A stretch of DNA of 64,000 nt, taken from positions 224,643 to 288,642 of the forward strand of contig NZ_JAYESI010000001.1 of assembly GCF_041903675.1 (NCBI RefSeq), given 5' to 3'. Position 1 is the first letter of the stretch. Each line of letters begins with the position of its first letter. The translations under genes and the position numbers were made by a program. The stretch comes from Corallococcus sp. RDP092CA (GTDB taxonomy: Bacteria; Myxococcota; Myxococcia; Myxococcales; Myxococcaceae). The notes beneath the pieces are model-generated. The model did no database searches, was not told the DNA's origin, and saw nothing but the letters and a program-made list of their open reading frames with translations. This document shows, in pieces, positions 4,500 to 7,400 of the stretch.

Positions 4500-7400
4500 A
4501 GCGTCCGGACGCGCAGCTCCACCCCGAAGCGAGCGCGCACGCGGGCCACCACCTGTGTGGCCAGAATCGAGTGTCCGCCCAGCTCGAAGAAGTTGTCGTG
4601 ACAGCCGATGCCGGACACGCGCAACAGCTCCTCCCAGATGGCGGCGAGGCGTGCTTCGGTGGGCGTGGCCGGTGGCTCGGAGCCCCGCGTGGAGGGCCGT
4701 GACGCATCCGGCATGGGCAGCGCCAGGCGGTCCAGCTTGCCGTTCGGTGTCAGCGGCAGGGCGGGCAGGGCGAGGATGGCGGCCGGCACCATTGCGTCGG
4801 GCAGGTTTCTCCGCAGGTGATCGTGCAGTGAGCCGGTGTCCACCTCTGGCGTGACATAGGCCACGAGGCGCGCGTCACCTGGCGCATCCTCGCGCACCAG
4901 GGCCATGGCATCCCGGACACCGGGCTGCGTGCGCAGCATGGACTCGATTTCACCCAGCTCGATGCGGTGGCCGCGCAGCTTCACCTGGAAGTCCAGGCGG
5001 CCCATGAAGTCGAGCGTGCCGTCCTCGCGCCAGCGGGCCCTGTCACCCGTGCGATACATACGTGCGCCGGGCTCCGTGCTGAACGGATCCGGCATGAAGC
5101 GCTCCGCCGTCAGGTGCGGACGCCCCAGGTAGCCCCGCGCGAGGCCCTCACCGGCGAAGCACAGCTCTCCCGGCAGCCCGAAGGGCACCAGTTCCTGACG
5201 TTCATCGAGCACGTAAGCGCGCAGGTTGTCCAACGGCCGTCCGATGACGGGCCGCGCGTGTGACGTTCCGCGCAGGTCCAGGGTGGTGGTGGTCACGGTG
5301 CACTCGGTGGGGCCGTAGACGTTGAAGGTCCGCGTGCGCCGGGTCGTGGCGAGCCGCTGCCACATCCCTTCATCCAGCGCTTCGCCACCGACCAGCAGCA
5401 GCGCCGGAACGTGGGGGCGCTCCAGCATCCCCGCATCCAGGAGGAGCTTCAGTTGCGCGGGCGTGCAGTCCAGTGCGTCCACCCGCGTCCGCTCCAGCCA
5501 CGCGAGCAACTGCTCCGGCTCCAATCGGAGGTCCTCCGGGATGGGGCATACGCAGTGGCCGTCCAGCAGCGGGAGTACCTGTCCGATGGATGCATCGAAG
5601 AACAGCGGGGCGTTGAGGCCGGCGTGGAGCCCTGGCGGTTGTCCTTCGTACACGGTCCGCCGGAGCGCATGACGCAAATGCAGCACTGAGCGGTGGCGCA
5701 CCATCACGCCCTTGGGCGCGCCGGTGGAGCCGGACGTGTAGATGACATAGGCGAGATTCCCCGGCCCCGCCGCCGGCGGCAGGTTCTCCGAAAACCGGTC
5801 CGACAGTCGGACAGGTTCGCGGGCCCCCGGTATCGGCCCGGCCGCGCCAAACTGGTCCGACAGTCGGACCGGTTCGCGGGCCCCCAGTATCGGCCCGGCC
5901 TCGCCATAGCGGTCCGACAGCCCGACAGGTCTGGCGTCCACCGGAGCCCGTCTGCCCTCCCCAATCGTGTCCGACAGCCCGACGGGTTCGAGTTCCCTCG
6001 GCGCCCACCCGGCCTCACCCAATGAGTCCGACGGTCGGACAGGCTCGCGGGCCTCTGGTACCGGGTCGGCCACACCCAGCGTGTCCGACTGTCCAACAGG
6101 TCCAGGGCCCCTCTGCGCCCGCCCTCTCACTCCAAACCTGTCCGACTGTCCTACAGGTTCGCAGGCTTCCGGTTCTGGCACGGCACCATCCAACGAGTCC
6201 GACAGTCGGACAGGTTCGCGGGCCCCAACTACCGGCCCGGCCATCCCCAACGAGTCCGACGGTTGGACAGGTTCGCGGGCCTCCGGTGCCGGTCCAGCGA
6301 TCCCCAATCGGTCAGACTGTCCGACAGGCCCGCGAGTCCCCGGTGCCGGTCCGGTGCTCCCCAATCGGTCCGACCGTCCGACAGGTCCAAAGTCTCCGAG
6401 CGTCGTCGTCGGTGACTCTGAGAACCGGTCTGATAGTCCGACAGGTTCGCTGTCCCCCCGTGCTCGCCCAGCCCCTTCAAGCTTGTCCGACTGTCTGACA
6501 GGTTCGTGGTCGCCCGATGCCGACACGGTCTCCCGGCGCTGATCCGGCTGTCCGACAGGTTCGAGGGCCTCCAGCGTTCGCCCAGCCGGTTCATGACTGT
6601 CCGACTGTCCGACGCGTTCGTGATCGCCTGGGACTCGCGTGGTCGTCCGAAACCTGTCTGACTGTCCGACAGGTTCTTGGTCACCCGTGGCCGACGTGGT
6701 CTCCCAGAACCTGTCCGACTGTCCGACAGGTTTTGCGTCCAGCCGCACCAGGTGGGGCACCTCCGGGTGCCATGCTTCTTGCAGCGCCCGTGTCGTCACC
6801 AGCACGGACGCGCCACAATCCTTGAGGACGAACGACTTGCGTGCGGCCGGCGCCCTGGGGTCTAGCGGCACGAAGGCGCCGCCGGCCTTGTTCACCGCGA
6901 GCAGCGCGATGATGGCCTCCGCCGAGCGCTCCAGGCACAGGCCCACCGTCACCTCCGGGCCCACGCCCAGCGACCGCAGGTGCCAGGCGAGCTGGTTGGC
7001 CCGGATGTTGAGCCGCCGGAAGGACAGCGTCGTGTCCCCGAATACCACGGCGTCCGCGTCCGGGGTCCGCAGCACCTGCTCCTCGAAGTCGCCGTGCAGT
7101 GTGCTTTCTCCGTCGAAGGGTGACGCGCTGCCTGCCAGGTCACCGAGGAGCTGGCGGCGTTCCTCCTCCGAGATGAGCGACAGCCGTGACAGCGGTGCGT
7201 CCGGTCGCGTGACCACCGCCTCCAGCAGCACGCGCAGGTGGGTGAAGAGTCGCGCCATCGTGGGGCGCTCGAAGAGGTCCGTGGCGTACGCGAGCGTTCC
7301 CCGGAAACCGTCCGCCCGGCGGTCCAGGTCCAGGCTCAGGTCGAACTGGGACGTGGTCCGCTTCCCAAGCGTGGCGGGGCGCACGGTGAGGCCGGGCAGC

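Follow-up and report, generated by a model that had tools for sequence, protein, structure and literature searches.

The question raised by this locus is how a long array of tandem repeats came to lie, in frame, within an adenylation (A) domain of a nonribosomal peptide synthetase (NRPS), and which features of that array are under constraint. The DNA analysed is a 64,000-nucleotide (nt) stretch of the Corallococcus sp. RDP092CA genome, hereafter the window, which has a G+C content of 72.8% and is 85-88% identical at the DNA level to C. carmarthensis and C. exercitus. The host gene is an uninterrupted open reading frame (ORF) of 11,082 codons encoding a hybrid of NRPS and polyketide synthase (PKS), and the repeats fall in the last A domain of its product (Table 1). 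The reading favoured here, with a probability of roughly 0.62, is that slippage has amplified an operator-like site in a loop of the enzyme permissive enough to accommodate it, protein binding and any regulatory role being the putative components of this explanation.

On the minus strand the array runs head to tail through 17 consecutive units, sixteen with a length of 57 nt and a single one of 60 nt according to the unit table; Tandem Repeats Finder (TRF) reports the period of 57 at 5792-6386 and 6597-6732. The initial annotation described seventeen consecutive 57-nt units, expanded in frame around a near-palindrome between the core motifs A2 and A3, and this account holds, with the correction that a single unit is longer. 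Both motifs flank the array, every unit is in the frame of the ORF, and the core 18-mer GTCCGACAGTCGGACAGG, with up to three mismatches, is matched 42 times in the window, where chance would give 0.3. Each unit consists of the core GAA CCT GTC SGA CWG TCG GAC, read as E-P-V-R/G-L/Q-S-D, and a variable 12-codon spacer. The distance from A2 to A3 is 383 amino acids (aa), compared with 77-79 aa in the five other A domains in which both motifs were detected. The presence of an in-frame repeat array in the A domain is confirmed.

Assemblies classically go wrong at tandem repeats; mis-assembly of the array was considered as a rival explanation, as was decay of the module or gene into a pseudogene. 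Both are extremely unlikely. The longest exact repeat within the array is only 30 nt and pairs of units are 65-84% identical, such that reads place uniquely, and collapse or inflation of the array during assembly is therefore unlikely; arrays also recur at this site in four assemblies made independently, among which is a complete chromosome. As for decay of the gene, the 11,082-codon ORF is intact, as are motifs A3-A10 by eye, and the frame of the array contains no stop codons over 324 codons, where about seven would be expected from base composition (P ~5e-4). The remaining five frames of the array contain between one and six stops.

A scan for two adjacent cores, using one genome per species and retrieving loci of 8 kb, returned 26 loci, including 22 from Corallococcus (C. 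exercitus, C. coralloides, C. aberystwythensis and C. carmarthensis), two from a Myxococcaceae metagenome-assembled genome (MAG) and one from a Roseisolibacter contig. The Roseisolibacter locus (L014) lacks the extended palindrome, leaving 25 of 26 that carry the palindrome family. Four loci lie within giant ORFs having a G+C content at third codon positions (GC3) of about 0.9. Two of these, L015 from the complete chromosome of C. exercitus and L026 from C. carmarthensis, are orthologues of the NRPS gene in the window (83-88% aa identity), while L001 and L017 are paralogous NRPS genes with 61% identity in the A domain. Units are found at exactly the same A domain site in all four, numbering five in L015 (60 nt each), two in L026 and three in each of L001 and L017, compared with 17 in the window. 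The search of other myxobacterial genomes proposed in the initial annotation has returned same-site arrays in addition to a palindrome family at further, intergenic loci, and the variation in copy number at one site bears out the suggestion that the array is a slippage hotspot. With its open frame, unit lengths that are multiples of three and copy number differing between related genomes, the array has the attributes of an in-frame coding minisatellite, or variable number tandem repeat (VNTR).

The lengths of the loop in which the repeats lie are informative as to their origin. Measured from VRLD to LAYV, the loop is 22 aa in the non-Corallococcus homologues examined, which are from Pyxidicoccus, Myxococcus and a Myxococcaceae MAG; these are the closest homologues outside the genus (58-71% identity), and the repeat is missing from them. 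In the five repeat-bearing genes the loop measures 327 aa (window), 102 aa (L015), 41 aa (L026), 61 aa (L001) and 60 aa (L017), which corresponds to 22 + n x 19(20) aa with n of 16, 4, 1, 2 and 2, respectively. A single unit, AEPVRLSDRFSDNPPPAAGAGN, aligns residue for residue and codon for codon with the loop of Myxococcus sp. RHSTA-1-4, SQDVRLTSLSRDNLPPLATPDN. The A3-proximal unit is 82-90% identical between species. Internal units mostly have their nearest neighbour inside their own array, with a minority, including several of those in the window, being closest to a unit in the array of another species. In C. exercitus the internal units show 85-98% mutual identity, which points to a recent expansion. 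On the basis of the loop lengths, the loop alignment and the relationships between units, the array grew in place by duplication of the gene's own a2-a3 loop segment, with no 57-bp element imported. The repeats had been regarded as an insertion, and as seventeen units of expansion; seventeen units are indeed present, but the one nearest A3 is the original loop and only 16 units (305 aa) come on top of it, the unit itself being duplicated native sequence. An in-frame insertion of the type represented by Rickettsia palindromic elements (RPE) or miniature inverted-repeat transposable elements (MITE) is rejected likewise: there is no extra DNA in a single unit, which equates to the 22-aa loop of Pyxidicoccus and Myxococcus, and its spacer can be aligned to the native loop. 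Searched by itself against proteins, the repeat peptide gave no match at E <= 1e-3, and the matches listed in the homologue search were all of about 1,500 aa or less, the giant orthologues not being among them.

Comparison of the units with one another and with their surroundings indicates what is constrained in this region. The base composition of the array is non-coding-like, with G+C at the first, second and third codon positions of 0.76, 0.60 and 0.67, compared with 0.76, 0.48 and 0.89-0.92 in the flanking gene. Among units, the ratio of nonsynonymous to synonymous differences per site (pN/pS) in the 12-codon spacer is 1.02, and divergence is equal over the codon positions. Pairwise differences in the seven-codon core are 0.13, 0.19 and 0.20 at the three positions, against 0.41, 0.55 and 0.47 in the spacer, meaning that core divergence is two to three times lower at all three. 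The core is fixed for codons that the rest of the gene seldom uses: outside it, CGA accounts for 4.4% of Arg codons, CCT for 5.4% of Pro and TTT for 0.8% of Phe. The 15-nt consensus GTCSGACWGTCSGAC is matched by all 13 NRPS cores in the four other genomes, while the identity between species at third positions of the flanks is no more than 72-86%. In the five coding arrays every one of the 25 spacings is a multiple of three, as opposed to 33 of 76 in non-coding arrays, and none of the 11 multi-unit non-coding arrays (those with two or more spacings) is uniformly so. Taken together, these data on composition, pN/pS, the core, codons and spacing indicate that the constraints are an open frame and a palindrome conserved as DNA, with the peptide free to vary.

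The same figures bear on whether the repeat is selected as a protein, perhaps because it provides flexible spacing, docking or phase separation for the megasynthase. A frame kept open over 324 codons and in five genes, together with the conserved EPV(R/G)(L/Q)SD motif, would be anticipated under such selection. This is nevertheless very unlikely, as the core is as conserved at third positions as at first and second ones, the spacer pN/pS is close to one, GC3 is 0.67 in a gene of GC3 0.9 with rare codons fixed, the copy number ranges from 2 to 17, and the same DNA is conserved in arrays that encode nothing. With pN/pS at about 1, the peptide evolves neutrally, constraint on its sequence being undetectable.

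In an AlphaFold2 model built from 36 homologues of an 867-aa query, residues 162-460 have a predicted local distance difference test (pLDDT) score below 50 and are without secondary structure, in agreement with the disorder presumed at the outset, while the A domain fold on either side of the loop mostly exceeds 90. Alignments to PDB chains such as that of LgrA split exactly at the loop, with query residues 28-142 and 462-866 aligned and chain residues ~311 to 325 bridged. The array had been placed inside the enzyme core, but its position is the surface loop a2-a3, already known to accept whole domains (PMC11355689). This loop is one of two interruption sites in A domains, and the naturally interrupted domains of TioN and MarQ contain whole methyltransferase domains at a2-a3 with activity retained (PMC11355689). 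Since whole domains are hosted there in active natural enzymes, it is plausible that the A domain tolerates its extra loop, and with 17 units it may still be active. The domain resembles these cases in having an extra a2-a3 segment in an otherwise complete A domain. A catalytic-domain insert was considered and rejected, because no Pfam family other than AMP-binding is reported in the array stretch of the protein and the modelled segment is of low confidence and unstructured; an intein was also rejected.

Two things lay beyond the reach of the initial annotation: the palindrome belongs to a genus-wide family associated with genes for GntR-type regulators, and a second array of it, without a spanning ORF, lies upstream of the NRPS gene in the same window. 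The palindrome common to all arrays is AAACCTGTCCGAC-W-GTCGGACAGGTTT, with an invariant part GTCSGAC-W-GTCSGAC (15 nt); over 98 non-coding copies, positions 8-22 of the palindrome are nearly invariant and the flanks variable. All 22 of the non-NRPS arrays in the fetched loci are intergenic, with neighbouring genes that are convergent, divergent or co-directional and of unrelated function. Spacer and period, the latter varying from 45 to 123 nt, differ from array to array, and the palindromic core alone is common to them. Membership of a dispersed multi-copy family, as seen among RPE and MITE, is therefore evident from the scan loci and the second array in the window. Orthologous intergenic arrays also differ in copy number: L008 of C. 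coralloides (6372-7163) has about 9 units and L012 of C. aberystwythensis (4129-5354) has 19, with flanks that are 90-91% identical and spacer sequences that do not align, which implies that arrays at one site either turn over rapidly or were amplified independently. L009 and L021 similarly have 3 and 2 units. At L020, a four-unit array (1393-1642) separates the genes for a diphosphomevalonate decarboxylase and a GHMP-kinase; as both run in the same direction, the array is probably inside a mevalonate operon.

No Rfam family matches the second array above threshold; the candidate gntR-DTE scored 22 bits against a gathering cutoff of 63.6 (E 0.25) and was treated as a chance match. A clustered regularly interspaced short palindromic repeat (CRISPR) array was rejected, the spacers of one array being homologous, with 69-81% matches over the whole unit. 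There were no matches to the core among viral contigs, nor to the core plus A3 in a metagenome scan. The metagenome scan for the tandem core gave seven loci, none of this family: three are octamer microsatellites and the others isolated sites with different flanks. The former (L028 421-800, L029 20-730 and L031 4015-4090) are pure (GTCSGACW)n with dozens of copies, from unrelated organisms, one with a G+C content of 46%; isolated pairs of TGTCCGACTGTCGGACA with other flanks are found in L033/L034, L030 and L014. Adjoining the second array at 37140-37500 is another repeat of ~58/117 nt, built around CGCGACGTCGTGCC (which contains GACGTC), with two to three copies at 67-79% identity.

The arrays are linked to a particular gene family. 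In a BLAST comparison among loci, a segment of about 1 kb is common to L006, L010, L016 and L024 at 77-83% identity, with L019 partly similar and three copies in one genome. This segment is a gene for a protein with a GntR-type helix-turn-helix (HTH; Pfam 1e-12), upstream of which lie a conserved block and two cores separated by 45-51 nt. A comparable arrangement is present in the window, where the array of 12 units ends in a core that lies 135 nt before the ATG of a truncated GntR copy. Searching proteins with the L006 product yielded 271 matches, and the best 120 of these are all from Corallococcus wherever an organism is named, at 66-98% identity; from the same 120, at least 6-8 distinct paralogues are present in each complete Corallococcus genome. 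The HTH is nearly invariant in 45 of the paralogues. The association was also approached in reverse, with six paralogues from four genomes picked from the protein matches independently of any DNA pattern: a zero-mismatch core is found 86-140 nt upstream of the annotated start in all six. Additional cores lie at about -175 and -300 in several of them, and an array of five units is present at one. Cores are located ahead of the regulator gene itself in L006, L010, L016, L024 and the window as well as in the reverse set.

In some paralogues the palindrome is also read in another frame, as LSDCRT(G) in the variable C-terminal tails (residues ~310-380) of 16 out of 120 proteins, including P0124, P0147, P0153, P0185, P0188 and P0227. 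These tails account for a core-like site near the 3' end of some of the GntR genes (L035 2664, L039 2481).

The consensus operator of the FadR subfamily is NyGTM-N0-1-KACNy, with a typical GT-AC distance of 3 nt (PMC4494728). The heptamer GTC-S-GAC, which occurs twice in each core, matches GTM-N0-1-KAC with a GT-AC distance of 3 (PMC4494728). As cores precede the paralogues and the heptamer fits this consensus, the palindrome is probably the operator of the GntR paralogue family, a proposal that draws on association and on the established behaviour of the family.

A selfish or neutral satellite, of the sort exemplified by repetitive extragenic palindromic (REP) sequences or mycobacterial interspersed repetitive units (MIRU), would offer a different account, in which the palindrome spreads and amplifies by itself and has no relevant binding partner, gene and palindrome were merely co-duplicated, and the NRPS carries its array without harm. 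The arrays are dispersed, intergenic, and beside unrelated housekeeping genes in all orientations; orthologous arrays differ in copy number, spacers evolve neutrally, and the block of homology between paralogues takes in the cores, all of which this account accommodates. It is still unlikely. The 15-nt core would not be expected to be near-invariant between variable flanks, nor to fit the operator consensus of the very family encoded downstream, and its position is kept in all six paralogues of the reverse comparison despite these being just 66-80% identical as proteins. Single cores fold as RNA at -11 to -14 kcal/mol, but covariation of the kind expected of a REP-type hairpin does not exceed that of shuffled copies: across 91 distinct non-coding copies the score is 0.112, compared with 0.111 after shuffling, and 204 of 500 shuffles are as high, the inner 15 nt being invariant and so uninformative. 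Nor was a transposase present among the ten flanking genes scanned, all of them unrelated housekeeping genes. As to features of RPE or MITE, no terminal inverted repeats or target duplication were obvious at array ends, though no systematic search for these was made.

If the palindrome is an operator, the intragenic array might itself be a regulatory device, with GntR dimers on 17 sites near the 3' end of a 33-kb gene acting as a roadblock or pairing with the 12-site array 2.3 kb upstream. The NRPS gene is bracketed by two arrays of the same site, a remnant of the GntR family adjoins the cluster, the NRPS core is confined to the genus that has the regulator family, and the core is perfect in 13 of 13 copies of the other NRPS genes despite its rare codons. 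Set against this, the adjacent GntR copy is truncated, and the unit table shows only about 5 of the 17 cores in the window still matching the 15-nt consensus, a pattern more suggestive of decay than of maintenance. Such a device is distinctly improbable. So too is its corollary, that copy number, varying from 2 to 17 between species, is an evolvable tuning knob and the enzyme merely tolerates the disordered loop.

Amplification of an operator-like site by slippage remains the preferred reading and could proceed as follows. The native 19-codon a2-a3 loop contains one copy of the Corallococcus-wide palindrome, the usual place of which is some 86-140 nt upstream of each GntR/FadR-like paralogue. 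Identical palindromes of 15-27 nt lying tens of bases apart would be a substrate for slipped-strand mispairing or unequal exchange, and either event between two palindromes would duplicate the whole loop segment head to tail. The first pair would set the period, which would explain why each array has its own spacer and period. Within a coding region only duplications in multiples of three would survive, hence the 57/60-nt periodicity and open frame of the NRPS array. The number of units would then have drifted independently in each lineage, giving 2, 3, 3, 5 and 17, the outcome in the window being an A domain with an extra unstructured loop of about 305 aa, neutral for the protein. The same slippage may have made the intergenic arrays at many loci, and bound regulators might promote instability, for instance by stalling replication.

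Several points weigh against this reading. The FadR consensus is loose, with about one match per kb by chance; Pfam detects only the HTH, and no FCD domain, in the GntR paralogues; and the copy beside the NRPS cluster is cut to 58 aa. The palindrome might rather serve as a promoter element or be recognised by some other protein, and homogenisation rather than selection could underlie the conservation of the core. At the DNA level the Myxococcus homologue matches the core at just 11 of 18 bases, and the palindrome may have reached the loop via substitutions in place, conversion from other copies, or insertion with compensating deletion. The comparison of copy number is one between species, each represented by one genome.

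Table 1. Features of the window discussed in the text
Feature	Position	Strand	Basis or remark
Hybrid NRPS/PKS ORF, 11,082 aa	2066..35314	-	C-A-T modules, KS-AT, luciferase-like monooxygenase, terminal C-T-TE
A domain carrying the array, last of the protein	aa 9401-10240, nt 4595..7114	-	motifs A3-A10 intact by eye
A3 motif LAYVIYTSGSTGAPKG	aa 9854, nt 5708-5755	-	motif search
In-frame minisatellite, 17 units	5762..6733	-	60-nt unit at 6389-6448
Native A3-proximal loop unit	5762-5818	-	unit table
A2 motif LLAVNKAGGAFVPLDP	aa 9471, nt 6857-6904	-	motif search
GFO/IDH/MocA oxidoreductase gene	35970..37142	-	between NRPS start and second array
Second array, non-coding, 12 units	37612-38180 (37609..38183 as a feature)	+	TRF, core search; period 49-51 nt (not multiples of 3), own spacer
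Conserved upstream block CATGTCAGACCCC..TGGTTGGATGGCGA..GGGGATGGGG	38240..38297	+	common to promoter regions of GntR paralogues
Truncated GntR/FadR-like copy, 58 aa, HTH only	38298..38471	+	83% identical, Pfam GntR 5e-7
2-oxoglutarate (2OG)-Fe(II) oxygenase gene	38716..39737	+	downstream of GntR remnant, in same long ORF 38040-39737
Putative binding site of GntR paralogues, AAACCTGTCCGACAGTCGGACAGGTTT			palindrome core

The megasynthase contains Condensation, AMP-binding, PP-binding, KS/AT and luciferase-like monooxygenase domains and a terminal thioesterase according to Pfam. Seven A domains are recognised by motif, plus one PKS module and one A-like/monooxygenase segment, from which it is plausible to number the array-bearing domain as module 9. 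The luciferase-like monooxygenase module is unusual in being preceded by an A-domain-like N-terminal fragment (aa 5960-6500, nt ~15800-17400), downstream of KS-AT-ACP. Two more in-frame tandem repeats, both without the palindrome, are found on the minus strand in linkers of the same protein: 3.6 copies of 60 nt (LSARSPExLEA...) in the KS-AT linker at 20699-20914 (aa 4801-4872), and 2.3 copies of 66 nt (LAPPPxxMTGPxxASLP...) after the AT at 19187-19340 (aa 5325-5376). Beyond the second array, the 58-aa GntR copy and the 2OG-Fe(II) oxygenase share one open frame, and the former may be either a dead remnant or part of an HTH-oxygenase fusion. Further large genes of PKS type (KS-AT-DH-ACP among others), the second such set in the window, occupy 42558-59160 on the plus strand, starting about 4 kb past the GntR remnant, so that both arrays are in a region dense in biosynthetic genes.

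The anatomy of the array is secure and would surprise an NRPS specialist, its function being the conjectural part. Literature searches on the core sequence and on repeats in Corallococcus or myxobacteria turned up no account of the palindrome family or the expanded GntR family, nor of any A domain with an internal tandem repeat. For NRPS enzymology, otherwise orthologous assembly lines with 0 to ~305 extra disordered residues in the a2-a3 loop amount to a natural experiment, marking this loop as a very permissive site for engineering for which a natural series of variants is available for assay. For genome evolution, palindrome-centred minisatellites are distributed genus-wide and tied to a strongly expanded, genus-specific set of GntR-type regulators, suggesting that regulator binding sites may behave as amplifiable repeats, even within genes. 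In practical terms, such arrays may be one reason why myxobacterial gene clusters are broken up in assemblies from short reads, and could act as typing markers.

Among known systems, MIRU of mycobacteria and clusters of REP, or bacterial interspersed mosaic elements (BIME), are dispersed bacterial minisatellites or VNTRs. Like these, the Corallococcus arrays consist of tandem units of 45-120 bp at many intergenic loci, in one case probably inside an operon, with copy number varying between related genomes; they differ in having array-specific spacers with just the core in common, in lacking support for hairpin conservation, and in the absence of a REP-associated tyrosine transposase (RAYT) or other transposase from the ten flanking genes. 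In the plasmid centromere sopC of F, 12 repeats of 43 bp each contain a palindromic SopB site, and here too, as in iteron arrays, tandem units of ~45-60 bp are built around a short palindromic site. By contrast, the present arrays belong to the chromosome, with many loci in each genome, and their association is with an HTH family of GntR type instead of a partition protein, partition genes being absent nearby.

Operators of the GntR/FadR type (PMC4494728) resemble the palindrome in that the heptamer fits their consensus and the sites, frequently paired, precede the gene of the regulator itself. The palindrome departs from them in its two boxes 8 bp apart within 27 nt, in reaching up to 19 copies at many loci, and in occurring inside an ORF, binding here being predicted. 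The RPE of Ogata et al. 2000/2002, as summarised in PMC10969869, likewise form a dispersed palindromic family inside ORFs, in frame and compatible with the protein surface, encoding a peptide without evident function; their unit is 100-150 bp, against a core of 15-27 nt here, which forms tandem arrays without net insertion and with a spacer half that is native NRPS sequence. Interrupted A domains such as those of TioN and MarQ (PMC11355689) share the a2-a3 insertion point and demonstrate that several hundred extra residues there are compatible with activity, yet their inserts are folded catalytic domains (methyltransferase, oxidase or ketoreductase) with structured linkers, where the present one is a low-complexity repeat predicted to be disordered. 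The array thus lacks a defining feature of each of two of these classes, having no net insertion as in RPE and no catalytic segment as in interrupted A domains. It is best described as a combination of known kinds: in-frame palindromic repeats, A domains interrupted at a2-a3, dispersed minisatellites and GntR-type operators.

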